NCBI GenBank assembly: GCA_017405765.1
Contig: JAFQZS010000005.1
Coordinates: forward strand, 25,042-89,041
Direction of reading: 5' to 3'
Origin: Clostridia bacterium
Lineage (GTDB): Bacteria; Bacillota; Clostridia; Oscillospirales; RGIG577
Length of the DNA: 64,000 nt
Part shown: positions 1 to 16,240 of the stretch, piece by piece
Position numbering within the stretch: the stretch's first letter is position 1
Layout of the letters: each line of letters begins with the position of its first letter
Translations under genes and position numbers: made by a program
Notes under the pieces: generated by a model
What the model saw: only the letters and a program-made list of their open reading frames with translations
Databases searched by the model: none
Told to the model about the DNA's origin: nothing

Positions 1-777
1 TTTGAAAATCGCAGAATCCTGTTTGATATACTCGACTACTGCAGGCAAAAGGGGATACCTACGGTTTTTTGGAACAAAGAAGACCCTATAGGCGCGCTCG
101 ACACGCGATTTGACTTCGCCGATACTGCGCTGCACTTTGACCACATATTTACTACGGCGCAGGAGAGTGTGGACGAATACCGCAGACGCGGCGGCGAGAG
201 CGTTCATGTTTTGCCTTTTATGGTAAACACGGCTGTATATTATCCCGATAACGAGATAAAAGACGACAATCGTGTGCTTTTTGCAGGCGCATGGTATGAC
301 GACTTGCCGAGGCGCTGCCGAGATACGCGCGCTTTGTTTGATTATGTGCTTTCTTTGGGCATGGATCTGGATATTTACGACAGGCATTCGGAAAGCGTAG
401 AGGAACGATTTAAGTTTCCCGAAGAATACAGAGAGTATATACATAAGTCGATCCCGACAGACCGCGTTCCGGCTCTTATGCGTAAGTACAGTAAAGCGAT
501 AAACGTAAACACGATAACTGATTCAAAGACGATGTTTTCACGCCGCGCACTGCAGCTTGCGGCGTGCGGACTGAGTGTAATAAGCAATCCGTCGGAGGCT
601 ATGCAGCGCGCTCTGGGCGGGCGAAAAGTTACTGCACCGAACGGCGAATTTCTATTGTCTATTGAGGCAAATTCGGAGATGGTGCGAAGAGAGCACGCGG
701 CTTCAAAAGCGTTTGACTATGTGTTAAACACGCTTTTGAAGGAGGGCGTTTCTATACCCGAGGAAGTGTATGCATAG
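1..777 (+). CDS. CgeB-like glycosyltransferase, C-terminal part (gene truncated by the window start)
   Basis: Frame 1 is open from base 1 (FENRRILFDILDYCRQKGIPTVFWNKEDP...), so tracked ORF 169..777 is only the tail. The motifs FWNKEDP, VLFAGAWY and NVNT.TDS.TMFSRR parallel FYSKEDPPN, VLF[AS]GSW and N[IL]NSV.DS.TMF in the two downstream paralogous modules. Confidence 0.6.
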   Translation, partial: FENRRILFDILDYCRQKGIPTVFWNKEDPIGALDTRFDFADTALHFDHIFTTAQESVDEYRRRGGESVHVLPFMVNTAVYYPDNEIKDDNRVLFAGAWYDDLPRRCRDTRALFDYVLSLGMDLDIYDRHSESVEERFKFPEEYREYIHKSIPTDRVPALMRKYSKAINVNTITDSKTMFSRRALQLAACGLSVISNPSEAMQRALGGRKVTAPNGEFLLSIEANSEMVRREHAASKAFDYVLNTLLKEGVSIPEEVYA

Positions 778-2309
778 TGGATATTATCCGAAAGTTATAC
801 AGATCTTTTAAGAAAACTATATACTGTGTACGAAGGTTTTTCGTGCTGAAAATGCGTGATGAAACGGAGTATGCGCGCCTTTTGGAGAATCGGGAAAACT
901 TCCTGACAAGTAACGGCTCGCGTTTTTATGAGCGATCGACTTACAATATCGGTATCGTTGCCGACAGATTTATATACGACGGATATAAAGACACATGCAC
1001 TCTTAGGTATCTCACTCCCGATTGGGACGAAAACGACCTTGCCGATTTAGACCTTTTGCTTATCGTTTCGTCATGGCAGGGGTTGTCAGGCGAGTGGAAA
1101 GGCGTTACTTGGGAAGGCTCGAAACAGATGGAGAGACTTGCCGAGCTTATGCGCGCCGCGAAAAACAGAAAAATACGAACGGCATTTTATTCAAAGGAAG
1201 ATCCGCCGAATTTCAGTGTATTTTTGACATTTGCGAAGGAAGCGGAGATAATTTTCACGTCAGCAGAGGAATGCATTCCGAAATATAAAAAAGAATGCGG
1301 ACACGATAATGTGCATCTGCTGAGATTTGCGGTGAATCCGCATCTTTACAATCCCATCGGGATGTATAATTCAGACAGGGACAGAGACACTGTGCTTTTT
1401 GCCGGTTCATGGATCAAAAAGTACCCGCAGCGTATGCGCGAACAGGATATGCTGTTTGGGCTTATAACAAAAAACGGACTGAAGCTGCACATTTTAGACA
1501 GAAATGACAACCGAGGCGAGCTTACATATGAATATCCGATGCGGTGGCAGAAATACGTTATGCCGGCGGTAAAATATGACGACTTGCCTTATATATATAA
1601 GCAGCATGGATGGATCCTGAACTTAAATTCGGTCTATGACAGCCGCACGATGTTTTCTATGCGCGCTTATGATGCGCTTGCATGCGGATGCCTTGTCCTT
1701 TCTAATCCAAGCGAGGGCATGGAGCTTACGCTTCCCGAAGTGCTTGTAGTAAGAAATGAAGATGATTTTCATATTGTGACCGCGATGAGCGAGGACGAAA
1801 AGGAGTCTTTGAGGCTTGCCGGCATATCGAGAGTCATGAATGGAAATACAACATACGATCGCATGGAGTATATACTTGAAAAATGCGGTCTGGACGTTAG
1901 TCCGACCAAGAGAACGGCTGCGGTGATCGCGCTCGGCAGCGATGAAGAGATAAAGCGCCTTAGAGAGCAGTTTGATGCGCAGACATATCCCGATAAAATT
2001 TTTCTTACTCTAAAAGAAATCACATCAAGAAGCGGTGGATATGACGCCTTTGCGTTTTGGGGCGGCGGCTTAAATTACGGGGCGTACTATCTTGAAGATA
2101 TGATGAACGCCTTCAAGTACACGTTGTGTTCGTATGTGACGGTTAAAAACAGAGACGGCCATTCTTATACGGATACGGCGGAAGATATTTATAAAACAGT
2201 ATTTTGGGGCGCATGTTTTTCTCCCGACGAAGCTCTGAAGCTGTCACGTCAGGGAGTACATGCCGAAGGCGGATATGTTGTGCCGATAAACTATATAAAA
2301 GATATATGA
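777..2309 (+). CDS. CgeB-like (DUF3880 / Glyco_trans_1_2-type) glycosyltransferase
   Basis: 510 aa with FYSKEDPPNF, FTSAEECIPKYKKECGHDNV, VLFAGSW and LNLNSVYDSRTMFSMRAYDALACG. It is collinear with residues ~190-665 of the 1131-aa protein at 4401, including the YYLEDMMNAFKYT region. The GTG start overlaps the previous stop (ATAGTG); an alternative ATG lies at 852. Confidence 0.65.
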   Translation: MDIIRKLYRSFKKTIYCVRRFFVLKMRDETEYARLLENRENFLTSNGSRFYERSTYNIGIVADRFIYDGYKDTCTLRYLTPDWDENDLADLDLLLIVSSWQGLSGEWKGVTWEGSKQMERLAELMRAAKNRKIRTAFYSKEDPPNFSVFLTFAKEAEIIFTSAEECIPKYKKECGHDNVHLLRFAVNPHLYNPIGMYNSDRDRDTVLFAGSWIKKYPQRMREQDMLFGLITKNGLKLHILDRNDNRGELTYEYPMRWQKYVMPAVKYDDLPYIYKQHGWILNLNSVYDSRTMFSMRAYDALACGCLVLSNPSEGMELTLPEVLVVRNEDDFHIVTAMSEDEKESLRLAGISRVMNGNTTYDRMEYILEKCGLDVSPTKRTAAVIALGSDEEIKRLREQFDAQTYPDKIFLTLKEITSRSGGYDAFAFWGGGLNYGAYYLEDMMNAFKYTLCSYVTVKNRDGHSYTDTAEDIYKTVFWGACFSPDEALKLSRQGVHAEGGYVVPINYIKDI

Positions 2310-2322
2310 GTGAAATCAAATT

Positions 2323-3138
2323 ATGGGATATTTTAAATTTTTAAAAGAATCTACGCTTGATATTTTCCGCAACATGCGGCGAATATGGTCGCTTGCGGTA
2401 TTTGAATATAAAAGAGCCAATACCGATATGTTTTTGGGCGGGCTTTGGAAGTTTTTATCCCCGCTTTTGCAGATAGGCGTGTATTGGGTCGTTTTTGGAA
2501 TAGGGTTGAGGAATAATTCCGATATGAACGGGTTCCCGTTTGTGCTTTGGCTCACCTGCGGCCTTACGCCGTGGCTTATGATGAATCAGGGCGTGAATAC
2601 AGGCGCGGCGTCTGTCTTCAGAAAGGCGGGACTTCTTACAAAGTCGAATTTAAAAATGTCTATGATACCCGTAAGTTCGGTGCTGTCGGCGATCTTGAAT
2701 CAGATATGGACGGTGCTTATTCTGTTTGCAATATTTCTCCTTACGGGAGGCAGGATCTGGTGGACGTGCCTTGACCTGATATACTACGTTGTGTTCATGT
2801 TCGTGTTCGTGTCTGCTCTTTCTCAGGTCACGGCGGCATTTGTTGTGCTTGCGCGTGATTTTCAGAAGGTAGTGCAGAATGCAATGCGATTTCTGTTTTT
2901 CTTAAGCCCTATATTTTGGGAGGCTAATCCCAATATGCCATATGTGTTCCAGGTTTTTGACAAACTCAATCCTTTCGCATATGTTATAAGAGGCTTCAGG
3001 AACGCCATGCTCTATCACGTGCCGTTTTGGCACGAGATGAAGCTCGTCTGCGCATTCTGGCTGGCCGCAATAATTCTTCATATGATCGGCATTGCGCTTC
3101 AGATGAGGCTTCGCAACAACGTATTGGATTACGTATAA
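2323..3138 (+). CDS. ABC-2 type polysaccharide/teichoic-acid exporter permease (Wzm/TagG/KpsM-like)
   Basis: 271 aa, polytopic and hydrophobic (about 6 TM). Family-typical stretches include GGLWKFLSPLLQIGVYWVVFG and LNPFAYVIRGFRNA. It sits directly upstream of its ATPase partner. Confidence 0.8.
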   Translation: MGYFKFLKESTLDIFRNMRRIWSLAVFEYKRANTDMFLGGLWKFLSPLLQIGVYWVVFGIGLRNNSDMNGFPFVLWLTCGLTPWLMMNQGVNTGAASVFRKAGLLTKSNLKMSMIPVSSVLSAILNQIWTVLILFAIFLLTGGRIWWTCLDLIYYVVFMFVFVSALSQVTAAFVVLARDFQKVVQNAMRFLFFLSPIFWEANPNMPYVFQVFDKLNPFAYVIRGFRNAMLYHVPFWHEMKLVCAFWLAAIILHMIGIALQMRLRNNVLDYV

Positions 3139-3148
3139 GGATTATATT

Positions 3149-4303
3149 ATGGACGAATATGTAATAACAGCAAAAAATATTGAAAAAGAATATAAAATAT
3201 ATAGTAAAAAATCGCAGAAGTATCTTGATTTTTTTCTGCCGAAATCCTTTGGCACATCATTTTATGCGCTTGACAACGTTTCCTTTAATGTAAAAAAAGG
3301 GGAGTCGCTTGCGCTTATCGGTCTAAACGGCAGCGGGAAAACGACGTTGGCAAATATACTTGCAGGTGCGGCGGAGGTGTCGGGCGGAGAGCTTGAGACA
3401 AAGGGCAAGGTATCTATGATAGCCGTAAACGCGGGCGTCGATCAGTTTCTTACCGGTATGGACAACATAGTCCAAAAGGGCCTCATGCTCGGCCTGGATC
3501 ACAAACAGATACAGGAGCGCATACCCGAGATACTGGAATTTGCCGACCTGGGAGACTTTATCCATCAGCAGGTAAAGACATATTCGAGCGGTATGAGGGC
3601 AAGGCTCGGATTTGCCATTTCGATAAATATAGACCCCGATATAATGATAATAGACGAGGCGCTTTCCGTGGGCGACCCCACGTTTACTGAAAAATGTCTT
3701 GCGAAGATGAATGAATTCAGAAAAAACGGTAAGACGATAATATTTGTGAGCCATTCGATACCTCAGGTGCGAATGTTTTGCGATACGGCGCTGTGGCTTG
3801 AAGGAGGAAGAGTTAGAGAAGCGGGAAACTGCATGGACGTTACGTCGAAATATGTAAAGTTTGTACGCGATTTCAACTCGCTTGATAACGCCACGAGAAA
3901 AAAATACGTAAACAGCATTCGTGAGCGTCAGAGAAGAAAGGGCGACGGCGCGGTCGCAAAAGAGATACTCGAAAGCATGGAGGGCAAAGTCGAAGAAGGC
4001 GATATCACGGAGGCAAATCCCGAGGCTTACGTTGATATACCGGAATACGAGCTCGAGCTTGAGCATAAGGATAACGGAGAGCTCGTGATGCGGGCGGCGG
4101 GCGAACGCTGCGACAGCGTGCGCTTTGCCTGGTATATATATAAAAAAGGAGAGAAGAACCCGACAGTCAAAATGCCATACAAGTATGAACAGGAGAGCAC
4201 ATATACATTTGAAGAATCCGGAACATACAGGGCAAGGCTTTTCCTTTTGGCAAACGGCGAGATCAATATGATCACATCCGATTGGTTTGAGGTGGAGTTG
4301 TAA
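3149..4303 (+). CDS. ABC exporter ATP-binding protein (Wzt/TagH/KpsT-like) with a C-terminal extension ending in the shared module
   Basis: Walker A GLNGSGKTT, signature YSSGMRARLGFA, Walker B IMIIDEALSVGD and H-loop FVSHS. About 135 extra C-terminal residues end in RFAWYIYKKG...SGTYRARLF. SD AAGGA lies upstream. Confidence 0.85.
   Translation: MDEYVITAKNIEKEYKIYSKKSQKYLDFFLPKSFGTSFYALDNVSFNVKKGESLALIGLNGSGKTTLANILAGAAEVSGGELETKGKVSMIAVNAGVDQFLTGMDNIVQKGLMLGLDHKQIQERIPEILEFADLGDFIHQQVKTYSSGMRARLGFAISINIDPDIMIIDEALSVGDPTFTEKCLAKMNEFRKNGKTIIFVSHSIPQVRMFCDTALWLEGGRVREAGNCMDVTSKYVKFVRDFNSLDNATRKKYVNSIRERQRRKGDGAVAKEILESMEGKVEEGDITEANPEAYVDIPEYELELEHKDNGELVMRAAGERCDSVRFAWYIYKKGEKNPTVKMPYKYEQESTYTFEESGTYRARLFLLANGEINMITSDWFEVEL
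4043..4300 (+). repeat. Shared protein module, copy A (tail of the ABC ATPase)
   Basis: RFAWYIYKKG -27 aa- GTYRARLF. Confidence 0.6.
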
Positions 4304-4400
4304 AGAAGGGTAATGTTTTCTTAATTAAAGAATACTGTCAACATTGAAAAAGTCTTATTAAACATACAATATTTTCTCATTATGTGTTAAGGAGAACGAT

Positions 4401-7400
4401 ATGTCTTATAACGAAAACGATACCATTAATAAAACGGAAGTCGAATCAGGCAATGAACGCAATATGCAGAGTATTTCTTCGGAAGAAAAAGAACTTGACA
4501 CTTTAAGAAACGCCTACGCCGAGCTTTTAGATAAAATAAGCGCGCTTAACAACGAAAATTTGCGTATGCAGGCGCAGCTTAAAAAATCAGATGCACAGAT
4601 GAGAAAACTGCTCGATGAGAACGGCCGTATTAAGAAGCGTCTGTCGCAGGAAAAGGCTGCTGCGGAAAAAAATCTGCGCCGCTATGAGCAGGTCAATGCA
4701 AAATATGAAGCGCTTGCGAACTCGAAGCTTGGCAGGCTTACCTTGAACCATTGGGCGAAGCAGTCAAAAAAGAAAGGCGCAGGCAAGGGGATAGCAGGAC
4801 TTCCCGCAGTGGAGAAGTATTTTGATAAGCTGCCGACTGCGCAGGAGCTTGATCCGGAAATTGCTGCCTTGGATGAAGTTCCTGTAAGCGCGGACGACGC
4901 CAATATAGACAGAAATGCGCTTGAAACTTGGGTATATAAATATGATGAGGCGATAGAAGCACTGCCGGACAGCAACGGCATACGATATTACAATAAGGCG
5001 CAGTGCAGTATAGGAATTATTGCGGACGAGTTTTTTTACGAGTCCATAAGCGACGCGGCCGATTTCGTTTATGTTACGCCCGAAAACTATGAGAGCGTTA
5101 TAGCGGGAAAAGAAATCGACGTCTTGCTTTTTGTATCTGCTTGGCGCGGGCTTAACAATGAGTGGACAGGCATGGCTCAGTTAAACTCCAATCGGCGCAG
5201 CGTTGCCCTTGACCTTATTGCAAAGTGTAAAGAAAACGCCATACCGACCATATTCTACTCAAAAGAGGATCCGCCAAACTACGAGCGGTTTATTGAATAT
5301 GCAAAGCAGTGCGACTGTGTTTTCACGTCCGCATCGGAATGTATACCGTATTACAAAGAAGATTGCGGGCATGACAGAGTATATGAGCTTATGTTCGGTA
5401 TAGATCCCGCCGTACATAATCCCATAGGATTCTATAAAGAAGAAAAAGATAAAACCGTGCTCTTTTCCGGTTCGTGGATGGAGAAGTATCCCAATAGATG
5501 CAGGGAGCTTTCTTTGATATTTAACGGTATACTGCGCTCGGATTATGACCTCCATATAGTTGACCGTAATTACGGCAATGAAAGGTATCAATATCCGCCG
5601 CAGTACAATCGCTATGCATCTCCCGCCGTAGATCATAAAAAACTTCAGAAGCTGCACAAGCAGTTTGACTGGGCCGTAAACATCAATTCCGTAACGGACA
5701 GCGAAACAATGTTCGCAAACCGCACGTTTGAGCTTCAGGCTGCGGGCGTACTTCTTTTATCAAATTACAGTGTCGGCGTAAACAATGTGCACCCGACGGT
5801 GTTCATGGCTCATGAATCGCTTGAAGTCGATAAGATACTGCAAGGATTTACGGATGAGGAGCGTTACGAACATCAGATCGCGGGCATACGCTCCGTTATG
5901 ACAGGGCATACATGCTTTGACAGGATCGAGTCGTTATTGGCGCCTATAGGTATAGACGCCGCTCAACCCAAAAGAAAGATACTTGTAATTGCACAAACGC
6001 TTGACGACGGCGTTAAGGCGTCGTTTGAGCGTCAGACGTATGAGAACAAAACGCTTATGCTGCAGTCAGAAATAAACGGCGAAGTTTTATCGCAGTATGA
6101 TATGGTAACATGGTTCGACGCCGGCGCATATTACGGAGAGTTTTATCTTGAGGATATGATAAACGCCTTTAAGTATACGGCCTGCGACTATATTACGAAG
6201 GACGCATATTTTAAGGACGATATATTGAATGCAGGCACAGAACATAATTATGTAAATAAAATGCGCAGTGCTTACCGCACCGTATTCTGGCGTGAAGCGT
6301 TCGATTCAGAATTTTTCTTAAGCGTACCCTCCGAGTGCGAGCTGCCAGGCGGATATTCTATAGACCGCTTTTCTTACCGCGAAGGCGCGCACGAGACGCC
6401 TGTCCGCGAAAAACCGTATCTTTTATCGGTGATAATTCCTGTATACAATAACGGCGCGCACCTTTACGGCAAGTGCTTTGCAAGCCTTAGACGCAGTTCG
6501 ATGTTTGACGACATGGAGATAATAATGGTGGACGACGGCTCCACCGATGAGCGGACATTGAAAATTGAAACGTATCTTTCCGACCGATATGCGAATGTAA
6601 AAAGATATGCCTTTGAAGACGGCGGAAGCGGTTCGGCTTCCCGTCCCAGAAATAAAGGCGTTGAGCTTGCTTCGGCTGAGCATATCACTTTTTTGGACCC
6701 CGACAACGAGGCTATTGATGACGGTTACGCTCAGCTTTATACATATGTGTGTGATGAAAACCTTGACATAGCGTTCGGAAATATATATCGCTGCACAGAA
6801 AAAACGCAGTTGTTTAATTATTATTACAATATCGGCAGACGCGCGGGAACGACCTTCTTTGAGCATGGGCTTAAGGAATATATGGCTCGCACCGATTTTT
6901 ATGCGGTCAGCATTCAGGCCATGATAATACGCCGTGAGATCATTATGAAAAACGGTTTTGAACAGGTGCCGGGCGCAGCCGGTCAGGATACGCTCTTCTG
7001 CTGGCAGCTTTTCTCTTGCGCAGACAGAATACGCGCTTTGGAGTTTCCAATACATATATACTATGCGCAGACGAGCGGTTCGGTAACCAATGCCGTAAGT
7101 ACGAAGTTCTTTGATAAGCTTATGCTGCTTCAGCAGCCAAAGATAGACTGGTTAATAAGTGAGAATCTATTAGAAGATTATATGCGTACGCGTCACGATA
7201 CATACGTTAAGGGTTGGATATTCCAGAAGCTGAGCCGTGCGAGAGAGGAAGAGCTGTGTACAAAGAAGGTCAAGGAAATACTGGATCTGTACGAACCGTA
7301 TTATAAGCGGACAGATGAGCTTATAAATGAGTTTATTAAGGATTGCGAAGACGAAAAGTATAACGATGCATTTTCGCTTGTAAAAAAAGAATTTGCAGAA

Positions 7401-7796: not shown

Positions 7797-7814
7797 TTCT
7801 GAGAGGAGACTAAT

Positions 7815-8084
7815 ATGGAAATAAAAAGTATAGATGCGTTCGACCTGTTTCATAACGGTACGATCGTATTAAAAACCAATACAGAAGAGCTTTCCGAGGG
7901 GTATGTTTTCGCATGGCGCGTGATAAACAAAAAGAACGACAAAACGGTATTTAAAAGCGGATATATTTCCGATCCGTTTATATCATGTAAAATCAAAGGT
8001 TTTGGCGATTATACGATAACGGCATATGTCCTTAATGAGAAAAACGGCGAAAAAATAAGCGCTGAGACGGAGTTTACGGCAGAT
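7815..8084 (+). repeat. Shared protein module, copy C1 (stand-alone protein, first half)
   Basis: VFAWRVINKK -27 aa- GDYTITAY. Confidence 0.55.
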
Positions 8085-8390: not shown

Positions 8391-8408
8391 TTTTGTTAGG
8401 AGTTAAGT

Positions 8409-9605
8409 ATGAAGTATCCCGTTAAAAGGCTTTCCGTGGAAGAACTCAACAAAGAACCCTTTTGCCCGGAACAGCCTACCATTTACGAAATCATCTGGGG
8501 AAAAACAAAATATGAGCTTCTCGTAAACTATGTACCCAATTCGCGAAAAATGGCAGCTTTCGGTACGGGCACGGTCAACAGGAACAGAGGTCTGCCTGAT
8601 TTTAAGCGCAACAGCTGGTACCCTGATATACCGGTCACCTCGATATGGTATGCCGACCCTACGCTTTACGAGGGGGAGTTGTCGCTTTACTGGTATTACG
8701 GCACCAACAAAAGATGGCATCTTAAGAATATTGCCTTCTTACTGGCTGCGATCGCAAAAAAGCATATGATCTCTTTGGAGGACTCTCTGTTTTTCGGTTC
8801 ATCGGGCGGGGGCTACTCTTCGCTCGTGCTTGCGACATTGCTTCACGGCAAGGCTTATGTAATAAATCCGCAGATATTTTTGGAAAATTATTTTGAGGCT
8901 CATTATAAAAAGTTCCTTGCAGACGTATTGTCAAAGGGCGAGAAGCCGGCAGAAGAACGCATAAGTATTATTTCTCTTTTTAAGGCTGAGCGTTATATAC
9001 CCAGAATACATTATGTACAGAACATGCAGTCCGTACATGATATACGTCTCCAGGTGACGCCGTTTCTTCGCGGAATATCCGAAGGAAATATGGACTGCAG
9101 CGATACTATAAGCATGGAGTTTTTCTATGCGGAGGGCGGTCATAACGCTATGCCCGACAAGGATCGTTCGCTTGTGCTGATAGCGCGCGGATTAGAGGAT
9201 AAGGCAACGGGCGTTGCGATAAACGCCGACGAGGAAAAGCATCAAAAGCTCACCTTCTTTGAACGAGTAAGCTGCGCGGATTTTAAAAATACGGGCACAT
9301 ATCTTCTGTTTGACGAGCTTGATGAATTCGGCGCAGTCTATAAGGGCGCGAAAACTGAGATATCGTCGGGAAATCTGTGTTATGATCTTGCGATCCCGAA
9401 ACGATCTGTGTCGGGATATACGTTTTCATATTATCTAATGGCAGACAAAGTAACGGCGGCCAAGCTTCCATATTCGGACAGCACAAAGGCGGAGTTTAAA
9501 CTTCTGTCGCCGGGACGATACAAGATAAAATGCTTTGTGCTGAAAGATGACGCAAAGCTTTCATTCGTATCAGACGAGATAACAGTCAAATCAACTGACG
9601 TTTAA
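8409..9605 (+). CDS. Alpha/beta-hydrolase-fold protein (putative glycan esterase/acyltransferase) with C-terminal shared module, paralog 1
   Basis: 398 aa with nucleophile elbow FFGSSGGGYSS and a candidate catalytic His in YAEGGHNAMPDK. It is ~55-60% identical by eye to the next gene over the catalytic part. SD AGGAG upstream. No signal peptide. Confidence 0.6.
   Translation: MKYPVKRLSVEELNKEPFCPEQPTIYEIIWGKTKYELLVNYVPNSRKMAAFGTGTVNRNRGLPDFKRNSWYPDIPVTSIWYADPTLYEGELSLYWYYGTNKRWHLKNIAFLLAAIAKKHMISLEDSLFFGSSGGGYSSLVLATLLHGKAYVINPQIFLENYFEAHYKKFLADVLSKGEKPAEERISIISLFKAERYIPRIHYVQNMQSVHDIRLQVTPFLRGISEGNMDCSDTISMEFFYAEGGHNAMPDKDRSLVLIARGLEDKATGVAINADEEKHQKLTFFERVSCADFKNTGTYLLFDELDEFGAVYKGAKTEISSGNLCYDLAIPKRSVSGYTFSYYLMADKVTAAKLPYSDSTKAEFKLLSPGRYKIKCFVLKDDAKLSFVSDEITVKSTDV
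9345..9602 (+). repeat. Shared protein module, copy D (tail of hydrolase paralog 1)
   Basis: TFSYYLMAD -25 aa- GRYKIKCF. Confidence 0.55.
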
Positions 9606-9619
9606 AAAGGAGTAGTTCT

Positions 9620-10819
9620 TTGGATTACGATATCAGAGAGTTAAATATAGAAGATATATATAAAGAGACGTTTAAACCAAAAAAGATCACGCTTTATAAA
9701 ATAATATGGGACGGAGTGACTTATGATTTTCTAATAAATCATGTGTCGGGCTCCAAAGTCATGGCGGCGTTCGGCACGGGAACGATGTCGAACCGTGCCC
9801 TGAAGCTTCCGTTTTTTGCAAGGTTGAGCTGGTATCAGAGTATCCCAGTGACCTCGGTGTGGTACGCAGACCCCACGCTTTATGAGGGGAAGCTGAAGCT
9901 TTATTGGTATTACGGCACGAATAAAAAATGGTATCTTGAAAACATAGCCTTTCTTTTGTCCGTCATATCGAAAAATATGGGCGTTGATGTTGCCAAGTCG
10001 CTTTTTTTCGGCTCATCGGGCGGCGGATATTCTTCGCTCGTGCTTGCAACGATGCTGCGCGGCAAGGCTTATGTGATAAACCCGCAGATTTTTTTGTACA
10101 ATTATAATGAGATACATTATAAACGTTTTGTGGCGGACAGGTGTCCCGAAGGAGAAAAACCGAAAGAAGAAAGAACGAATCTCTTAAAGCTGTGCGAGCG
10201 TGAGCGCTATATACCAAGAACATACTGCCTGCAGAATATACGCGACGTGCGTGACATTGATAAGCAAATAACGCCGTTTCTCTCTGAGATAGCCCATAAC
10301 GCCTACGATTGCGGTGAGGCTGTTACAATGGACTTTTATTACGACGAAAAAGGCCACAACGGTATGCCTGACAAGGCGACGACGCTTGAATTTATTAAAA
10401 AAGGCCTCTTGGACAAAAGAAAAGGCAAGGAGCTCTTGCTTGAGAAAAGATCCGGCAATAGTCTTAGCTTTTTTGAGCGCATTTACGATCTCAACTTAAG
10501 AAGCGCTGATGCGCATATAACGTATGCTAACAAAACGAAGCCGCACGAGATCATGAAGGGCGTAAATATCGAGTGGCAGAAGGACGGAAGCCTTTTATGC
10601 ACTGCCGAAACGTATACGCAGTCAGAGGATTATCTGTTTGCCTTTAATCTTATAAGCTCCAAAAACCGCATATACAAAAAAAGGGCATATTCTCCCGAAA
10701 AGTCGTGCCGGTTTGAAGGTATACCCGATGATACATATACATTGAATAGTTTTGTAAAATCCGGAGCCATCACCGAGATGGTAAAAGTCGTTATTCCCCC
10801 CAAAAAAACGGAGGTATAA
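9620..10819 (+). CDS. Alpha/beta-hydrolase-fold protein with C-terminal shared module, paralog 2 (tandem duplicate)
   Basis: 399 aa with FFGSSGGGYSS and YDEKGHNGMPDK. The TTG start is supported by AAGGAG 8 nt upstream and by N-terminal alignment with paralog 1. Confidence 0.6.
   Translation: MDYDIRELNIEDIYKETFKPKKITLYKIIWDGVTYDFLINHVSGSKVMAAFGTGTMSNRALKLPFFARLSWYQSIPVTSVWYADPTLYEGKLKLYWYYGTNKKWYLENIAFLLSVISKNMGVDVAKSLFFGSSGGGYSSLVLATMLRGKAYVINPQIFLYNYNEIHYKRFVADRCPEGEKPKEERTNLLKLCERERYIPRTYCLQNIRDVRDIDKQITPFLSEIAHNAYDCGEAVTMDFYYDEKGHNGMPDKATTLEFIKKGLLDKRKGKELLLEKRSGNSLSFFERIYDLNLRSADAHITYANKTKPHEIMKGVNIEWQKDGSLLCTAETYTQSEDYLFAFNLISSKNRIYKKRAYSPEKSCRFEGIPDDTYTLNSFVKSGAITEMVKVVIPPKKTEV
10559..10816 (+). 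repeat. Shared protein module, copy E (tail of hydrolase paralog 2)
   Basis: LFAFNLISS -26 aa- DTYTLNSF. This is the most divergent copy. Confidence 0.45.
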
Positions 10820-10917
10820 ACACGAACCGTTAACGGCGGTGATCTCAATTCCGCAGGACGAGCTGTTTTTTGAGAAACCGATAATCAATGGGTCTAAAAT
10901 AAATATTGACAAGCAAA

Positions 10918-13023
10918 ATGAAGAATACAGAGTATGAGTTTGTACCGTTTTCGGGTGAAGTTACTCAAAATAATTTCAAAGAAGAATTGAATAATGGCTT
11001 TTATATACCTCCTCAGTTCTATTTCAGCAGCAAAGAAATACCAAACACCGCAAAGAGCATTACGGAAGGCGTTTTGTTTGTCCATCGTGCTGTTTCGGGA
11101 GTTGAGTATGACCTTGAAACGTTCGACTGGAATTTATCGGTCTCAAAACAGGCGGAAACGTTTCAATTATATCTTCAGGCATTAACACCTGTTGCAGTGT
11201 TGGCAAGAGCATATGAGATGACCGGCAACAGGAGTTTTCTTGAGTTTGCAGAAAGAATGATCATAGAATGGTGGAAATATGCTTCTGATAAAAAGAGTTC
11301 AGATGAAAACCGCAGAGTTTGGACAGATCATTCCGTTGCGTTAAGAACGGAGATCCTTATGTATTTTGGTCGTGTGATCAAGACGGCCGGATATGGAAGT
11401 GACGAGCTATATTCTTCGCTTTATGATATACTCAATATTCAAGGTAAGTGGCTTTACGAAACGCCGGGTTATGCAAAGAATCATAATCACGGCATAATGC
11501 ACGATAAAGGCTTGTTGTTTTTAAGCGTTCAACTTAAGAAAAAAGAATGGTACCTTAGAGCAAAGAACCGTATTTTAACCCAAGAGAAATGGGCGTTCGC
11601 CGCTGATAACGTACATAAAGAAAATTCTCCCGCTTATACCGGCGTGGCAAGAAATTGGTTCATAGATATCGGCACGTTTTTGTCAGAATGGGGAGATCCG
11701 GCCGGCGATAAGATACTCAAAGACATGGAAAGGGTGCAGGAATATATCGATTGGGCTACGAAGCCTAACGGTATAATAGCGCAGGTGGGCGATACCGGAA
11801 ACATACCTGGCAAAAAATACGGTTATCCTGACAAAATGAAACGGCGATCGAAGGATATACACGCCATGTTTCCTGTAAGCGGCATATATTTCTATCGCTC
11901 AAATATCGATAGTGAAAGTATGCTTGATACATGGAAAACGATAAAGTCGGGATTCGTCAGAAAAACGCATAAGCATGCAGATGACGGTTCGTTTATTCTT
12001 TATTCAAAAGGATATGAAATTTTCGTTGACTGCGGCGTATACGGATATGCAAACGATGATTTCCGAAAATATATAATATCGGCAAAAGCGCATAATACGG
12101 TGATCGTAGACGATGAGTCATACGATATAGATGAAAAAAATGCAGAGCGCGCAGGTGTAGAGGGATGGGCGTTTTTTGAGGAATATGACCATATAAGAAC
12201 GTTTAATAATATATATCCCGGAGTACAGATAAAAAGAGATTTTTGTTCAGCCGATGATCTGACGATCATATATGATTCTTTGGAATCCGAACAACAGCAT
12301 ACTTATTCGCAGCTGTTTCATTTGGGAGAAGATATATCCGTTTTGTCTTCCGATGACAGAGAAGTCGTGATGCAGATTGCCGACACGGATCACATCGTGC
12401 GTATAAGACAGCACGGTTCTCCCGTTAAGCTGTCAATATTGTGCGGCGATTTGAGCAAATCCGATTATGGCCTTATATCGAGAGGGATAAATCATTTAGA
12501 CGTAATATCCACTCTGAAATTTGATATAAGCGGCACAAATGCAGAATTTATTACGTCAATAACAATAGAAGATACTAAAGGCAATATTAGATTGTATGAT
12601 AAAACAGTTCCTGTTGATAGTCTCGTATATAAGTCCGAAGAACGCACGTTTGAGATAGATTCGCTGAGAATAAACTGCAAAGAGGAGCTTTTTTCGGCCG
12701 GTCAGATATCGAAACGAGTATCATATGGCAACGATAAAAGTGACGCCATATGCGGTTTTGTTTACGGATACGGTTATAAAGTCGTTGAAAATGAATTAAG
12801 GTTCTCCCTTGATCTAAAAGAAGATAAGCCAAAAGACGTTGAATTTGCCTATTATTTGCTCAGCGGAGGGAAAATACTAAGAAAAGCAGGATATTCAAAG
12901 TGCGAAAGTGTGGTATTCGACGAGATAAAGCGCGGCAATAGTTATCGAATCAAATATTTCATAAAAAGAAAAACAGAAAGAATGGCGTTTGTGTTAAAAG
13001 AAACTGAAGATTTTAATATATAA
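10918..13023 (+). CDS. Heparinase II/III-like (alginate-lyase-like N-terminal plus Hepar_II_III C-terminal) protein with C-terminal shared module
   Basis: Family-typical NHNHGIMHDKGLLFL, HKHADDGSFILYSKGYEIFVDCG and AKAHNTVIVDD. No signal peptide. ATG at 10918 is preferred; the tracked ORF starts at in-frame TTG 10906. No strong SD for either start. Confidence 0.65.
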   Translation: MKNTEYEFVPFSGEVTQNNFKEELNNGFYIPPQFYFSSKEIPNTAKSITEGVLFVHRAVSGVEYDLETFDWNLSVSKQAETFQLYLQALTPVAVLARAYEMTGNRSFLEFAERMIIEWWKYASDKKSSDENRRVWTDHSVALRTEILMYFGRVIKTAGYGSDELYSSLYDILNIQGKWLYETPGYAKNHNHGIMHDKGLLFLSVQLKKKEWYLRAKNRILTQEKWAFAADNVHKENSPAYTGVARNWFIDIGTFLSEWGDPAGDKILKDMERVQEYIDWATKPNGIIAQVGDTGNIPGKKYGYPDKMKRRSKDIHAMFPVSGIYFYRSNIDSESMLDTWKTIKSGFVRKTHKHADDGSFILYSKGYEIFVDCGVYGYANDDFRKYIISAKAHNTVIVDDESYDIDEKNAERAGVEGWAFFEEYDHIRTFNNIYPGVQIKRDFCSADDLTIIYDSLESEQQHTYSQLFHLGEDISVLSSDDREVVMQIADTDHIVRIRQHGSPVKLSILCGDLSKSDYGLISRGINHLDVISTLKFDISGTNAEFITSITIEDTKGNIRLYDKTVPVDSLVYKSEERTFEIDSLRINCKEELFSAGQISKRVSYGNDKSDAICGFVYGYGYKVVENELRFSLDLKEDKPKDVEFAYYLLSGGKILRKAGYSKCESVVFDEIKRGNSYRIKYFIKRKTERMAFVLKETEDFNI
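12772..13020 (+). repeat. Shared protein module, copy F (tail of the heparinase II/III-like protein)
   Basis: EFAYYLLSGG -26 aa- NSYRIKYF. Confidence 0.55.
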
Positions 13024-13101
13024 TATTATCCTTATAGAACGATAAATGATCTGCGTGTTAAATTTGCAATACACTTTTTGAGCGGTAATTTTTTAAATGT
13101 A

Positions 13102-13131
13102 TTGCATTTTATATACGGCATATTATATAAT
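13102..13131 (+). promoter_or_regulatory. Candidate sigma-A promoter for wecB-glmS
   Basis: TTGCAT (13102-13107), 18-nt spacer, TATAAT (13126-13131), in the AT-rich gap upstream of wecB. Confidence 0.35.
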
Positions 13132-13198
13132 AAATATAATATCATTTGTCATTTTATATGCCAAATTGTATAACCTCATAAAAGAAAGGGTTATTTTC

Positions 13199-14317
13199 AT
13201 GAAAAAAGTTATGCTTGTCTTCGGAACGCGTCCCGAAGCGATAAAGATGTGCCCCCTTGTAAATGAATTAAAAAAGAGACCTTCCATCGAGACTGTTGTC
13301 TGCGTAACGGGCCAGCACAGGCAGATGCTCGATCAGGTGCTCGATGCATTTAACGTCGTGCCTGATTATGACCTCTCGGTAATGAAGGAGCGTCAGACGC
13401 TTTTTGACGTTACCTCAAATATCCTGCTTAAGATAAAAGAGGTGCTTGAGGAGGTGAAGCCCGACGTTGTGCTCGTTCACGGCGATACGTCAACTACGTT
13501 CGTTACGGCGCTGGCGTGCTTCTATCTGCAGATACCTGTCGGACATGTAGAGGCGGGTCTTCGCACCCACAACATCTATTCGCCGTTCCCTGAGGAGTTC
13601 AACCGTCAGGCCGTGGGCATAATAAGCAAGTATAACTTTGCGCCGACCAAGGCGTCGAGGGACAACCTGTTAAGAGAAGGCAAGCCGGAGGACTCTATCT
13701 TCGTTACGGGCAATACGGCTATAGACGCGCTTAAAACTACCGTAAAAGAGGACTATACTCATCCGCAGCTTGAGTGGGCGAAGGGAAGCAGACTTATCTT
13801 GATCACAGCACATCGCCGCGAAAATCTGGGACAGCCTATGCGAAATATGTTCCGCGCTATCCGCAGAGTTTGCGACGAGCATCCCGATATAAAGGCGATA
13901 TATCCGATACATATGAACCCTGTTGTACGCGAAACGGCTAATGAGGAATTGGGCGGCGACGAGCGCATTCGTATAATAGAGCCTCTTGACGTGCTTGATT
14001 TCCATAACTTTATGGCTAAGAGCTATCTCATCCTTACCGACTCGGGCGGCATACAGGAGGAGGCGCCCTCGCTTGGCAAGCCTGTGCTTGTTATGCGCGA
14101 CACGACCGAGCGCCCTGAAGGAATACGCGCCGGTACGCTTCAGCTTGTCGGCACAGAGGAAGAGAACATATATCGCACGTTCAAATCACTTTTGGAAGAA
14201 GATCAGTTATACCGCGCCATGAGTACGGCAAGCAATCCGTACGGCGACGGACAGACGAGCCGCAGAATTGCAGATATCCTCGAAGGAAAACGAGAGAATA
14301 TCACATTCGAAGGCTGA
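13199..14317 (+). CDS. wecB: UDP-N-acetylglucosamine 2-epimerase (non-hydrolysing)
   Basis: MKKVMLVFGTRPEAIKMCPL, HGDTSTT, HVEAGLRT and TDSGGIQEEAPSLGKPVLVMRDTTERPEG. The internal ATG at 13199 has SD AAAGAAAGGG upstream. The tracked 13097 start adds an implausible AT-rich extension. Confidence 0.9.
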   Translation: MKKVMLVFGTRPEAIKMCPLVNELKKRPSIETVVCVTGQHRQMLDQVLDAFNVVPDYDLSVMKERQTLFDVTSNILLKIKEVLEEVKPDVVLVHGDTSTTFVTALACFYLQIPVGHVEAGLRTHNIYSPFPEEFNRQAVGIISKYNFAPTKASRDNLLREGKPEDSIFVTGNTAIDALKTTVKEDYTHPQLEWAKGSRLILITAHRRENLGQPMRNMFRAIRRVCDEHPDIKAIYPIHMNPVVRETANEELGGDERIRIIEPLDVLDFHNFMAKSYLILTDSGGIQEEAPSLGKPVLVMRDTTERPEGIRAGTLQLVGTEEENIYRTFKSLLEEDQLYRAMSTASNPYGDGQTSRRIADILEGKRENITFEG

Positions 14318-14337
14318 TAAATAAAGGAGAAAGCAGT

Positions 14338-16200
14338 ATGTGTGGAATCGTAGGCTTTATAGGAAGACATGACGCAGCGCCGATTTTACTGGATGGACTT
14401 TCTAAGCTTGAATACCGCGGTTATGACTCGGCAGGTCTGGCGGTACGAGATGAAAAAGGGAATTTTGAAGTTGTGAAAGCCAAGGGGCGTCTTCTCAATC
14501 TTTATGAGAAAACGGATTCCGGCAAAGCGCTTCACGGAACGATAGGCATAGGCCATACGCGCTGGGCTACGCACGGCGAACCGAGCGAGACGAACGCTCA
14601 TCCCCATATATCCGGCTCCGATGTGGATGACTCCATGGTAGTCGGCGTACATAACGGCATCATAGAAAACTATGTCGAGATGAAGGACAAGCTTTTAAGA
14701 AAAGGCTATAAGTTTTACTCCGAGACTGATACCGAAGTAATGGTCAAGCTTGTAGACTATTATTACAAAAAGTATCAATGTCCTCCCGGAGAAGCTATTG
14801 CCAAGGCGATGGTGCGCGTAAGAGGTTCGTATGCTCTTGTGCTTATGTTCAAGGACCATCCCGACGAGATATGGGCTGCAAGAAAAGATTCGCCGATGAT
14901 AATAGGCATATGCGACGGGGAAACTTATGTTGCATCCGATGTGCCGGCAATTTTAAAGTATACTAAAAACGTATACTACATCGGCAATATGGAGATCGCG
15001 CGCCTTAAAGAAGGCACGGCGGAATTTTTCAATATCGACAGCGAGCCGCTCGAAAAGGAGCTCGTTGAGATAACATGGGACGCCGAAGCTGCCGAAAAGG
15101 GCGGCTACGAGCACTTTATGATGAAAGAGATACATGAGCAGCCGCGCGCTATTACCGATACGCTCAACAGTCTCATCAAGGGAGAGAGAAACGAACGCAG
15201 GATAGATTTTGAATCTATCGGAATTTCCGATGAAGATATAAAGAATATTTCTCAAATATATATCGCGGCATGCGGCTCTGCATGGCATGTCGGTATGGCG
15301 GCGCAGTATGTCCTTGAGGATCTGGCGCGCATTCCCGTTAGAGTGGAGCTTGCGTCTGAGTTCAGATACCGTGATCCCATACTTGATAAAAACGGTCTTG
15401 TTATCGTTATAAGCCAGTCGGGAGAGACGGCGGACAGCCTTGCCGCTCTAAGAGAGGCTAAGGAAAAAGGCATAAAGACGCTTGCCATAGTAAACGTTGT
15501 GGGTTCGTCTATAGCCCGTGAAGCCGACTATGTGCTTTACACCGTATCGGGTCCGGAGATAGCCGTTGCTACGACAAAGGCGTATTCAACGCAGCTTGTG
15601 GCAATGTATCTTGTGGCAATACAATTCGGCGCGGTTCGCGGTTGTATCGATGAAGAAAAGTACGCTTACTATATTTCCGAGCTTTATACGCTGCCGGATA
15701 AGATAGAGAAGATTTTTGAAACAAAAGAAAAGCTGCAGTGGTTCGCTGCCAAATTCGTAAATGTTCATGACGTTTTCTTTATCGGCAGAAGTATTGACTA
15801 CGCCGTATCGCTTGAGGGCAGTCTCAAGATGAAGGAGATATCATACGTTCATTCAGAGGCTTATGCGGCAGGTGAATTGAAGCATGGCACGATAAGCATG
15901 ATCGAAGACGGTACGCTTGTTATAAGTGTGATCACGCAGCCGCAGCTTTATGAAAAGACGATATCCAATATGGTAGAGTGCAAAGCGCGCGGCGCATATC
16001 TTGCGGCTATAACGACTTACGGGCATTACGACGTAGAGGACAGGGTAAACTTTGTTACGTATATTCCCAACGTCGATCCGCACTTTATGGGAAGCCTGAG
16101 CGTTATCCCGCTTCAGCTGTTGGGTTATTATCTGAGCCTAAGCCGCGGGCTTGACGTAGATAAGCCGCGAAATTTGGCAAAATCGGTAACGGTTGAATGA
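14338..16200 (+). CDS. glmS: Glutamine--fructose-6-phosphate aminotransferase (isomerising)
   Basis: MCGIVGFIG N-terminal Cys amidotransferase domain, two SIS domains (SQSGETADSL) and C-terminal KPRNLAKSVTVE. SD AAGGAG upstream. Only 20 nt separate it from wecB. Confidence 0.95.
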   Translation: MCGIVGFIGRHDAAPILLDGLSKLEYRGYDSAGLAVRDEKGNFEVVKAKGRLLNLYEKTDSGKALHGTIGIGHTRWATHGEPSETNAHPHISGSDVDDSMVVGVHNGIIENYVEMKDKLLRKGYKFYSETDTEVMVKLVDYYYKKYQCPPGEAIAKAMVRVRGSYALVLMFKDHPDEIWAARKDSPMIIGICDGETYVASDVPAILKYTKNVYYIGNMEIARLKEGTAEFFNIDSEPLEKELVEITWDAEAAEKGGYEHFMMKEIHEQPRAITDTLNSLIKGERNERRIDFESIGISDEDIKNISQIYIAACGSAWHVGMAAQYVLEDLARIPVRVELASEFRYRDPILDKNGLVIVISQSGETADSLAALREAKEKGIKTLAIVNVVGSSIAREADYVLYTVSGPEIAVATTKAYSTQLVAMYLVAIQFGAVRGCIDEEKYAYYISELYTLPDKIEKIFETKEKLQWFAAKFVNVHDVFFIGRSIDYAVSLEGSLKMKEISYVHSEAYAAGELKHGTISMIEDGTLVISVITQPQLYEKTISNMVECKARGAYLAAITTYGHYDVEDRVNFVTYIPNVDPHFMGSLSVIPLQLLGYYLSLSRGLDVDKPRNLAKSVTVE

Positions 16201-16212
16201 TCTATACTTTTG

Positions 16213-16240
16213 AGGCCGCTCTTGTCGGGCGGCCTTTTTA
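16213..16240 (+). terminator. Intrinsic terminator after glmS
   Basis: Stem AGGCCGC (16213-16219) pairs with GCGGCCT (16229-16235), followed by a U-run. Confidence 0.7.

Follow-up and report, generated by a model that had tools for sequence, protein, structure and literature searches.

What kind of polymer leaves the cell through an ATP-binding cassette (ABC) transporter whose ATPase shares a small immunoglobulin (Ig)-like domain with most, though not all, of the soluble proteins encoded beside it, and where does that polymer go? The locus that raises this question occupies the first 16,200 nucleotides (nt) of a 64,000-nt stretch of DNA from a Clostridia bacterium (assembly GCA_017405765.1, contig JAFQZS010000005.1, positions 25,042 to 89,041 of the forward strand), referred to here as the window. 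We favor, with moderate confidence, the reading that an anionic cell-wall glycopolymer, similar to teichuronic acid and containing N-acetylmannosaminuronic acid (ManNAcA), is made by an ABC-transporter-dependent pathway encoded in this locus. Pathways of this type are already known; what appears new is the gene set around a polymerase that joins a PF13524 module to a GT2 module, the cytoplasmic heparinase-like editors, an unnamed hydrolase family and, foremost, the Ig-like tag that the transporter has in common with most soluble proteins of the locus. None of these new elements was found described in the searchable literature.

Open reading frames (ORFs) were assigned by Pfam and NCBIfam profile scans, and the large ORFs were scanned with Pfam across the whole window. 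Eleven co-directional, tightly spaced + strand ORFs were found within positions 1 to 16200, separated by gaps of -1 to 98 nt, just as an original prediction made from the sequence letters had placed them; the stop of the 382-amino-acid (aa) transferase gene and the start of the 510-aa gene overlap by 1 nt. The features of the locus are as follows.

1 to 777 (+): 3' part (258 codons) of the gene for a cytoplasmic glycosyltransferase of 382 aa, paralogous to the CgeB-type (PF13524) transferases; the whole gene lies at 8853-10001 of L002, the upstream DNA described below
777 to 2309 (+): 510-aa CgeB-type (PF13524) glycosyltransferase, with a C-terminal domain of ~130 aa in common with the 1131-aa protein
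2323 to 3138 (+): Wzm/TagG-type ABC-2 permease
3149 to 4303 (+): Wzt/TagH-type ATPase, with a nucleotide-binding domain (residues ~1-260), a linker and a C-terminal Ig-like domain
4034 to 4300 (+): Ig-like (Fn3/PKD/Y_Y_Y-like) domain of Wzt, 106.7 bits with the hidden Markov model (HMM) of the locus domain
4401 to 7796 (+): 1131-aa multidomain transferase and candidate polymerase, with a coiled coil (nt 4473-4736), a CgeB-type module (nt 4971-6362), a GT2 module (nt 6417-7088) and an Ig-like domain (nt 7479-7748)
7815 to 8390 (+): 191-aa cytoplasmic protein made of two Ig-like domains (nt 7815-8099 and 8121-8387)
8409 to 9605 (+): 398-aa protein of an unnamed family, a predicted alpha/beta-hydrolase (residues ~1-275) with a C-terminal Ig-like domain (nt 9315-9602)
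9620 to 10819 (+): 399-aa paralogue of the 398-aa hydrolase, with its own Ig-like domain (nt 10553-10816)
10918 to 13023 (+): 701-aa cytoplasmic heparinase II/III-like protein with a C-terminal Ig-like domain (nt 12739-13020)
13199 to 14317 (+): wecB/mnaA, non-hydrolysing UDP-N-acetylglucosamine (UDP-GlcNAc) 2-epimerase; the ORF opens at 13097
14338 to 16200 (+): glmS, glutamine--fructose-6-phosphate transaminase (TIGR01135, 752 bits)
16212 to 16236 (+): terminator-like hairpin from a consensus scan, which ends the + strand unit and converges with a - strand hairpin at 16294-16262

Counted from a TTG at 10906, the ORF of the heparinase-like protein is 705 aa long. To the three ORFs at 7815-8390, 8409-9605 and 9620-10819 the Pfam and NCBIfam scans assigned no significant family. 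Promoter and terminator scans of the window returned counts at chance level, and the hairpins behind glmS alone are noteworthy.

How does the product leave the cell? Wzm matched PF01061 (ABC2_membrane) at 51.7 bits against a cut-off of 26.9 and was the only one of the 11 locus proteins encoded in the window with hydrophobic segments of the transmembrane type, from which it follows that the locus enzymes are cytoplasmic; signal peptides were not seen in any of the 11. Wzt matched PF00005 (ABC_tran) at 76 bits, and its best NCBIfam models, both for the TagH N-terminal part, gave 337 and 294 bits; since both scores fall under the equivalog cut-offs (538 and 320), we regard it as TagH-like and not as a TagH equivalog. 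It has ~125 additional C-terminal residues, and no match to the Wzt_C (PF14524) jelly-roll was obtained in Wzt at E <= 0.01. Pfam scans of the large ORFs of the window and of the genes in the 10 kb upstream of it, 74 kb in all, detected no Wzx, Wzy, TagO/WecA/WbaP, TagA, CsaB or LCP domain, which extends to this whole distance the earlier observation that Wzx/Wzy, a priming transferase and an LCP ligase are missing. The pathway is ABC-transporter-dependent and Wzx/Wzy-free, with Wzm/Wzt as the sole exporter, and this configuration supports the proposal that the polymer is completed in the cytoplasm and exported already polymerized. A priming gene encoded elsewhere is usual for wall teichoic acid and for many O-antigens.

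Which enzymes would build the chain? The gathering threshold of PF13524 (Glyco_trans_1_2, the CgeB/YkvP-type family, to which we take Bacillus subtilis CgeB to belong) is 25 bits; the 510-aa protein scored 51 bits and residues 391-514 of the 1131-aa protein 34.6 bits, with the 382-aa transferase below threshold at 23.4 bits for the fragment in 1-777 and 22.3 bits for the complete protein. The 382-aa and 510-aa proteins share 33% identity across 233 residues (E 2e-37), and residues 191-654 of the 1131-aa protein align with the 510-aa protein at 39% identity (E 6e-112). On these alignments the three PF13524 modules are true paralogues, so that all three CgeB-like modules of the original prediction stand, the 22-23-bit one as a clear paralogue. 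The GT2 module of the 1131-aa protein (PF00535, residues 673-896, 73 bits) resembles TarP (6h1j) and further GT2 structures, and the coiled coil at residues 25-112 shows a heptad a/d enrichment of 0.45, compared with 0.16+-0.07 in shuffled sequences. PDB sequence searches with the 510-aa transferase and with the 398-aa hydrolase gave nothing useful.

Which sugar would they polymerize? Upstream DNA was obtained by exact-protein look-up from contigs encoding the identical 510-aa protein in the same gene order (L002, which comprises the 10 kb upstream of the 510-aa gene and thus reaches ~9.2 kb past window base 1). The locus does continue upstream, as had been supposed, by three genes encoding a 353-aa GT2 transferase, a 413-aa nucleotide-sugar dehydrogenase and the complete 382-aa transferase, and the check for a priming transferase found none in these 10 kb. 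WecB matched TIGR00236 at 527 bits (cut-off 210), and by this match genes for the synthesis of UDP-N-acetylmannosamine (UDP-ManNAc) are present; the GT2 module, Wzm, Wzt, WecB and GlmS had all been correctly named (73, 51.7, 337, 527 and 752 bits). For the dehydrogenase the best model was UDP-ManNAc dehydrogenase, at 364 bits against an NCBIfam equivalog cut-off of 459, with the AglM and TuaD models (UDP-glucose dehydrogenases) at 161 and 119 bits and TviB at 152 bits. WecB and this WecC-like dehydrogenase would together provide UDP-ManNAcA, the genes for whose synthesis are thus probably present. The UDP-ManNAc-dehydrogenase-like gene upstream and the heparinase II/III-like enzyme of uronate type make ManNAcA a more likely diagnostic sugar than the ManNAc or GlcNAc that had been proposed. 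A polymer identical to the classical pyruvylated-ManNAc ligand of SLH domains was set aside, CsaB not having been found within the 74 kb.

Directly before the three upstream genes and on the same strand, L002 (3121-6373, ~3.6-6.9 kb upstream of window base 1) encodes two SLH-domain wall proteins of 650 and 390 aa with long poly-glycine and Asn/Asp-rich linkers; we see in them candidates for S-layer or wall proteins that may partner the polymer. Their position raises an alternative destination, in which a lipid carrier bears the growing chain, Wzm/Wzt exports it and these SLH proteins finally receive it as the glycan of an S-layer or SLH glycoprotein. Such an arrangement would parallel the slg clusters of Geobacillus and Aneurinibacillus; in Geobacillus stearothermophilus, ABC-transporter-dependent S-layer glycan clusters adjoin the S-layer gene. 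We nevertheless hold an S-layer glycan to be unlikely, because no Wzy_C, WsaB or PglL-type transferase is found in the window or the 10 kb upstream and because of the relatives of the locus described next.

Is the gene set peculiar to this genome? A scan of GTDB genomes with the 510-aa transferase gave a single relative, and the others were reached by protein searches and exact-protein look-ups. The order dehydrogenase (DH), GT38x, GT5xx, wzm, wzt, GT11xx, the two-domain Ig-like protein (2xIg), hydrolase (not always present) and heparinase-like protein, where GT stands for glycosyltransferase and numbers for lengths in aa, recurs in at least three other Clostridia lineages.

L009 (GCA_965336215): GT2, DH, 373, GT528, Wzm, Wzt (275), GT1161, 2xIg (189), hydrolase (360), 722, heparinase-like
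L010 (Oscillospiraceae, GCA_028691385): DH, 378, GT494, Wzm, Wzt (272), GT1152, 2xIg (190), hydrolase::heparinase-like fusion
L001/L005: like L009 and L010, plus a second polymerase of 1302 aa, two more two-domain proteins and a tandem double heparinase-like protein

Behind the big transferase, all Clostridial versions seen have a two-domain protein of ~190 aa, with orthologues in L001/L005, L009 and L010. Taken together, the gene orders of L001/L005, L009 and L010 indicate that the core is conserved and syntenic and that the accessory end is modular; the locus is therefore variable in the sense originally proposed only as far as its accessory modules differ between relatives, its core gene order being kept and not that of a strain-specific island. 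In L010 the end of the cassette is adjoined by a gene of the O-antigen-ligase/Wzy_C family (19936-21309, -), which has no counterpart in the window and could encode a ligase or a protein O-oligosaccharyltransferase; its position speaks for the S-layer reading.

Outside the Clostridia the evidence points elsewhere. A word-indexed search of 5.8e9 proteins returned 148 homologues of the 510-aa transferase, from metagenome-assembled genomes (MAGs) of Clostridia and, as ~880-aa PF13524+GT2 fusions, from Micrococcaceae and Salinicoccus. The locus of Paenarthrobacter ureafaciens (CP094489, 3.30-3.33 Mb) contains Wzm, Wzt, two PF13524+GT2 transferases, a sugar dehydrogenase, wecB and two heparinase-like genes, and a separate 131-aa protein, whose N-terminal 90 residues are coiled-coil-like by eye, precedes the homologous transferase. 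That of Salinicoccus roseus contains a PF13524+GT2 gene, Wzm, the ATPase, a dehydrogenase and an OatA-type acyltransferase, and adjoins an LCP ligase gene. The Ig-like domain was not found in the Paenarthrobacter and Salinicoccus loci. No SLH genes accompany the Micrococcaceae and Salinicoccus cassettes in the stretches fetched, and the LCP ligase gene beside the Salinicoccus one likewise argues against an S-layer glycan.

The same neighborhoods bear on the possibility that the product is a capsule or exopolysaccharide, released or loosely attached, with the heparinase-like enzyme in the part that AlgL plays in alginate synthesis, that of a housekeeping lyase trimming or clearing polymer that has gone astray. 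Clusters for uronic-acid exopolysaccharides often hold a cognate lyase, the accessory modules here vary among relatives as they do in capsule loci, and an LCP ligase was not found in the 74 kb; the heparinase-like protein is, however, cytoplasmic, unlike known housekeeping lyases, the Salinicoccus version has an LCP gene beside it, and the transporter is closest to TagH. A free capsule is accordingly an improbable product in our estimation, and we rank it after the S-layer glycan among the rival destinations. Last in that ranking, and very improbable, comes a glycan of the spore surface (crust or exosporium) made by the CgeB-like transferases, an alternative that the original prediction had set beside a wall polymer and that derives from a Pfam family name alone. 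Two modules do exceed the PF13524 threshold, and in B. subtilis the crust protein CgeA is glycosylated by CgeB, a putative transferase (PMC13577073). The window also holds a SpoIID-family gene (48848-49828) and an M23 peptidase gene (50518-51297), whose sequences suggest that the organism is an endospore former; with spoIID in the genome, sporulation is possible. Crust glycosylation, on the other hand, modifies proteins inside the mother cell and does not require export by Wzm/Wzt, the locus lies amid housekeeping genes and beside SLH wall proteins with no Cge, Sps or Cot genes nearby, and the related gene set occurs in Paenarthrobacter and Salinicoccus, which we take to be non-sporulating genera. 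The related gene sets in these two genera and the SLH wall proteins upstream lead us to favor a vegetative wall polymer over a spore glycan.

What, then, is the domain that the exporter shares with its neighbors? A recurring segment of ~85 residues with the pattern x-F/Y-A-W/F/Y ... G-x-Y-x-I/A-x-x-F was spotted in the translations and defined by an HMM built from the seven locus copies, which was run on all six-frame ORFs of the window. The seven copies are distributed over six proteins, at the C-termini of Wzt, the 1131-aa protein (104 bits), the 398-aa and 399-aa hydrolases and the heparinase-like protein, and twice in the 191-aa protein (100.7 and 105.4 bits), which consists of nothing besides them; with this seven-copy HMM the domain was not found elsewhere in the 64 kb (best other match E 0.7). 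Pfam gave Y_Y_Y and PKD matches that were all sub-threshold, the best Y_Y_Y match on individual copies having E 4.6e-5 and those on whole proteins reaching 17-19 bits (threshold 26.6), and a profile search of PDB sequences matched the PKD domain 2c26 at E 0.003. The AlphaFold2 model of the Wzt domain alone (pLDDT 91) is an 8-strand sandwich whose best PDB structural neighbors are the POMGNT2 Fn3 domain, in first place, the fibronectin Fn3 domain and PKD; the model of the 398-aa protein (pLDDT 94.6) likewise shows an Ig-like beta-sandwich. The fold is thus modeled with confidence as an Fn3/PKD-like beta-sandwich.

An exhaustive profile search of 1.84 billion cluster representatives returned 400 proteins at E <= 0.001. 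These include genuine extracellular Y_Y_Y repeat proteins, and others share the architectures of the locus, namely Wzt, heparinase-like proteins, hydrolases, transferases and two-domain proteins of ~190 aa, with ~20 clusters of two-domain proteins of ~183-198 aa among the best 150 representatives. One Wzt match contains five stretches that fit the domain profile, and at least one of the five precedes the ATPase domain. In the single relative from the GTDB scan, a Clostridia MAG from sheep gut, copies outside the seed set occur in Wzt, in the two-domain protein, at both ends of a 1044-aa transferase and at the end of a 1309-aa transferase. The position of the domain is N- or C-terminal depending on lineage; in L009 it stands at the N-termini of the accessory enzymes. 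Identity is 9-36% among the locus copies and 30-85% between these and their positional orthologues in a relative, which indicates that the copies are old, diverged and individually maintained.

We consider it most likely that the domain is a recognition module that holds proteins on the nascent polymer or on each other. The copy on Wzt may be analogous in role to the unrelated C-terminal carbohydrate-binding module of the E. coli O8/O9a Wzt, which can work as a separate polypeptide. A narrower alternative is that the domains are protein-protein docking modules and not glycan binders, gathering several enzymes into one complex at the transporter, where the 191-aa protein would be the adaptor. 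This would fit the low identity of the copies, which conserve mostly core positions, as well as the retention by every enzyme of its own orthologous copy across lineages, the presence of a free two-domain protein in every Clostridial version seen even where Wzt lacks the domain, and the finding that the closest paralogue of the Wzt copy is domain 2 of the 191-aa protein (36% identity). The best structural analogue, however, is the Fn3 domain of POMGNT2, which contributes to acceptor recognition, and PKD and Y_Y_Y domains are common in glycan-handling proteins; docking alone is therefore a credible explanation to which we give rather less than even weight, and the two roles are not mutually exclusive.

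What would the tagged enzymes do to the polymer? The "modifying enzymes" of the original prediction are the two-domain Ig-like protein, the two hydrolases and the heparinase-like protein, and the most unusual features had escaped it, since it recognized neither the shared Ig-like domain nor the heparinase-like enzyme nor the hydrolases as a new family. The 398-aa and 399-aa hydrolases are 45% identical. The word-indexed search of 5.8e9 proteins identified 32 homologues of this family, all unnamed and none with a Pfam match, and all those carrying an organism name come from Clostridia MAGs; S132 within GSSGGG, D211 and H245 each recur in 90% or more of the family sequences. Foldseek comparison of the 398-aa model (pLDDT 94.6) gave esterases and lipases as top matches (E ~1e-7, TM ~0.5). 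The 398-aa protein is hence modeled as an alpha/beta-hydrolase, and its paralogue is predicted to be one, with a Ser-Asp-His triad predicted from conservation.

The heparinase-like protein matched PF07940 (Hepar_II_III_C) at 92.6 bits and heparinase III (4mmh) at E 2.6e-4, with the N-H, S-P-x-Y and H-x-x-D-D/N-G-S/T-F motifs aligned; N194, Y244, H355, H357, H396 and N397 are invariant in 23 homologues, two of them from Paenarthrobacter. The protein has no signal peptide or transmembrane segment, and no signal-peptide-like N-terminus was seen in the Paenarthrobacter and Clostridia MAG homologues that were read. In the Oscillospiraceae MAG (L010 17228-19864) an 878-aa fusion unites the two kinds of editor, residues 1-263 corresponding to the hydrolase (44% identity, E 2e-75) and residues 307-876 to the heparinase-like protein (44% identity, E 1e-179). 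The tandem double heparinase-like protein of L005 (13637-17455, 1272 aa) has an Ig-like domain in its middle, in further heparinase-like homologues the fusion partner is a CE4 polysaccharide deacetylase or a methyltransferase domain, and one relative has an Asp2-like or S9-like hydrolase domain at its N-terminus. These fusions suggest that hydrolase and lyase-fold enzyme act on the same substrate; the lyase-fold enzyme, with a predicted intact active site, would be functionally tied to the alpha/beta-hydrolase.

Does the whole locus form one unit, and was it acquired as such? Its G+C content is 0.436 over positions 1-13023, 0.472 over wecB-glmS and 0.498 over the remaining window, and the per-gene difference is significant (Mann-Whitney p = 5e-5). 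The AT-richness described earlier is thus real, and the two hand counts of G+C that accompanied it (20/60 and 36/60) were exact; the drop is modest, however, and starts only at base ~777 with the 510-aa gene and not upstream, the three upstream genes having values of 0.48-0.49. The lowest G+C in the locus belongs to the heparinase-like gene (0.393, with 0.387 at third codon positions, GC3). The idea that the whole locus is a horizontally acquired island was rejected, since the shift in composition begins inside the operon at ~777; it is further disfavored by the conserved core gene order in several lineages, and no mobility genes or flanking repeats were seen. At the other end, the TIGR00236 alignment of WecB opens at residue 37, so that the true start is probably Met35 (13199), and the first 34 codons of the ORF (13097-13198; MYCILYTAYYIINIISFVILYAKLYNLIKERVIF) are AT-rich, hydrophobic and apparently a spurious extension. 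With this start, an AT-rich spacer of 175 nt separates wecB from the 3' end of the heparinase-like gene. As glmS starts 20 nt past wecB, the two are probably co-transcribed. Rfam at gathering thresholds found no RNA family in the whole 64 kb, hence no glmS ribozyme before glmS or wecB, and ARAGORN found no tRNA in the window.

These elements can be arranged into a pathway for the ManNAcA-containing wall polymer. The chain would be started on undecaprenyl phosphate by a TagO/WecA-type enzyme encoded elsewhere and extended by the small transferases, that is, the upstream GT2 and the 382-aa and 510-aa proteins. Polymerization would then fall to the bifunctional CgeB-type and GT2 protein of 1131 aa, whose N-terminal coiled coil may set geometry or chain length. 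While still in the cytoplasm, the polymer would be edited by the two Ser-Asp-His alpha/beta-hydrolases, adding or removing O-acyl groups, and by the heparinase II/III-like enzyme, which would abstract the C5 proton of the uronate and so bring about either C5 epimerization, from ManNAcA to N-acetyl-L-gulosaminuronic acid (L-GulNAcA), or chain cleavage. The finished chain would pass out via Wzm/Wzt and be joined to the wall by an LCP-type ligase that is also encoded elsewhere.

Several observations weigh against this reading or parts of it. The score of the dehydrogenase lies under the equivalog cut-off given above. A priming transferase, TagA, an LCP ligase and CsaB are all absent within 74 kb, and with no attachment genes in that distance, attachment to the wall is proposed only from the Salinicoccus neighborhood and from what holds for wall polymers in general. 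The wecB-glmS pair, whose enzyme identities hold and which had been read as precursor supply, may instead be a separate housekeeping unit, given its near-average composition, the 175-nt spacer and its location outside the cassette in two relatives. In L009 and L010 Wzt is without the Ig-like domain, which is therefore not essential for export in general, and the conservation of the copies chiefly at core residues would be expected of a structural or protein-docking module no less than of a glycan binder. For the heparinase-like enzyme, C5 epimerization and chain cleavage are about equally likely, and for the hydrolases either direction of O-acyl transfer is possible, esterase and acyltransferase fitting alike. 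Finally, the source organism is known as a MAG alone, and its polymer is read from genes.

A bolder extension of the wall-polymer reading, which we regard as doubtful, is an editing factory in which the Ig-like domain, in its diversified copies, serves as a shared address label that brings exporter, polymerase, acyl-editing hydrolases and lyase-fold enzyme to one nascent ManNAcA chain, and in which the heparinase-like protein is a polymer-level C5-epimerase (ManNAcA to L-GulNAcA) working with the fused or adjacent hydrolase or deacetylase. If this were true, the heparinase-like protein would correspond, on the bacterial side, to the epimerases of heparan and dermatan that have the lyase fold, the pairing of hydrolase or deacetylase with epimerase would resemble heparan sulfate synthesis, where N-deacetylation precedes epimerization, and the tag-free Micrococcaceae version would represent the long-sought genes for the synthesis of ManNAcA-type teichuronic acid.

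The rest of the window is ordinary Clostridia core genome, including pckA, ksgA, rpsI, rplM, pgk, tpi, gpmI, eno, rnr, glmU, prs, mfd, dnaI and spoIID. Two of its proteins may concern the cell wall. One, of 507 aa (21474-22997, -), combines SLH domains with a non-specific DNA/RNA endonuclease and an Ada-type zinc-binding domain and appears from these domains to be a wall-anchored nuclease with an unusual C-terminal domain; the other, of 371 aa (55387-56502, +), has a copper-amine-oxidase N-terminal-like domain and a CE4 polysaccharide deacetylase domain and is probably a wall-modifying enzyme unrelated to the locus. Among the housekeeping genes, beside dnaI- and dnaB-like genes, lies a gene for a 426-aa bacterial serpin (38021-39301, -; PF00079, 168 bits); serpins are uncommon in bacteria and known in some gut Firmicutes. 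A 482-aa protein of the HpaB family (43811-45259, -) has a TetR regulator gene ~250 nt off on the opposite strand; in anaerobes members of this family are often 4-hydroxybutyryl-CoA dehydratases and not hydroxylases.

The locus would thus exemplify a conserved and apparently undescribed cassette for uronic-acid wall polymers that is common to gut Clostridia, Micrococcaceae and Staphylococcaceae and that offers candidate genes for the synthesis of ManNAcA-type teichuronic acid. We found no paper joining teichuronic acid with heparinase, or heparinase II with N-acetylmannosaminuronic acid, and none of the literature found on Micrococcus teichuronic acid genes and on guluronic-acid wall glycopolymers of Arthrobacter describes the gene set or names genes. 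The cassette raises the questions of what job a cytoplasmic heparinase-fold enzyme has in a biosynthetic operon and why one and the same Ig-like module is placed on the exporter and on most soluble proteins of the locus. How susceptible the abundant gut Clostridia are to phages, and how the host immune system recognizes them, is shaped by their surface glycopolymers, which have hardly been studied.

Among known systems, the closest in plan are the E. coli O8/O9a pathway (Wzm-Wzt with WbdA/WbdD) and the TagGH/TarGH exporters of B. subtilis and S. aureus, which like the locus combine an ABC-2 permease with a TagH/Wzt-like ATPase in the absence of Wzx/Wzy and share with it cytoplasmic transferases, a priming enzyme encoded elsewhere, an extra C-terminal domain on the ATPase and a coiled coil on a biosynthetic protein. 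The Wzt extension of the locus differs from that of O8/O9a in being an Fn3/PKD/Y_Y_Y-like domain of ~85 aa and not a Wzt_C jelly-roll. The locus differs from both systems in repeating the domain of the ATPase on the polymerase, three editing enzymes and a free two-domain protein, and in having transferases of the PF13524 type instead of the GT4 or TagF type. We know of no precedent for an exporter domain that is repeated on polymerase and editing enzymes. The transferases themselves are set apart from CgeB, a 317-aa putative protein O-glycosyltransferase acting on CgeA (PMC13577073), in that their modules span 380-510 aa or form part of the 1131-aa polymerase and are accompanied by an exporter.

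The B. subtilis tua operon resembles the proposed system in its product, an anionic uronic-acid wall polymer. Similarity to the GT2 enzyme TuaG is weak (69.8 bits for the upstream GT2 and 39.9 bits for the 1131-aa protein, far under the equivalog cut-offs). The tua pathway is of the Wzx/Wzy type (TuaB, TuaE), begins with TuaA and uses UDP-glucuronic acid (UDP-GlcA) from TuaD, and counterparts of TuaA, TuaB, TuaD and TuaE are absent from the locus. As for the editors, the heparinase II/III and alginate-lyase-type lyases have, like the locus protein, a Hepar_II_III_C domain and the Asn-His/Tyr/His motifs, but the known bacterial heparinase members are secreted or periplasmic and catabolic, whereas the locus protein has no secretion signal and lies inside a biosynthetic operon; the animal glucuronyl and dermatan C5-epimerases share the heparinase/alginate-lyase-type lyase fold. 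Neisseria meningitidis OatC and streptococcal Asp2 are alpha/beta-hydrolase-type O-acetyltransferases of surface glycans, and they resemble the locus hydrolases in their cytoplasmic alpha/beta-hydrolase fold, GxSxG nucleophile, conserved Asp and His and setting in a glycan locus, but without detectable sequence similarity.

For the product, the mannosaminuronic-acid secondary wall polymers of Geobacillus offer a further comparison. The nearest one may be the teichuronic acid of Micrococcus luteus, [4-beta-ManNAcA-1,6-alpha-Glc]n, which is made by a membrane-associated bifunctional synthetase whose genes are not named (PMC3005890). The nearest cultured carriers of PF13524+GT2 proteins are Micrococcaceae, M. 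luteus itself not being among the matches listed, and the actinobacterial locus is without the Ig-like tags and alpha/beta-hydrolases of the Clostridia locus. With its UDP-ManNAcA precursors and its bifunctional polymerase of two transferases, the M. luteus system nevertheless matches what the genes of the Clostridia locus, from which alone its polymer is read, would predict, and we infer that the product of the locus is comparable to M. luteus teichuronic acid (PMC3005890).

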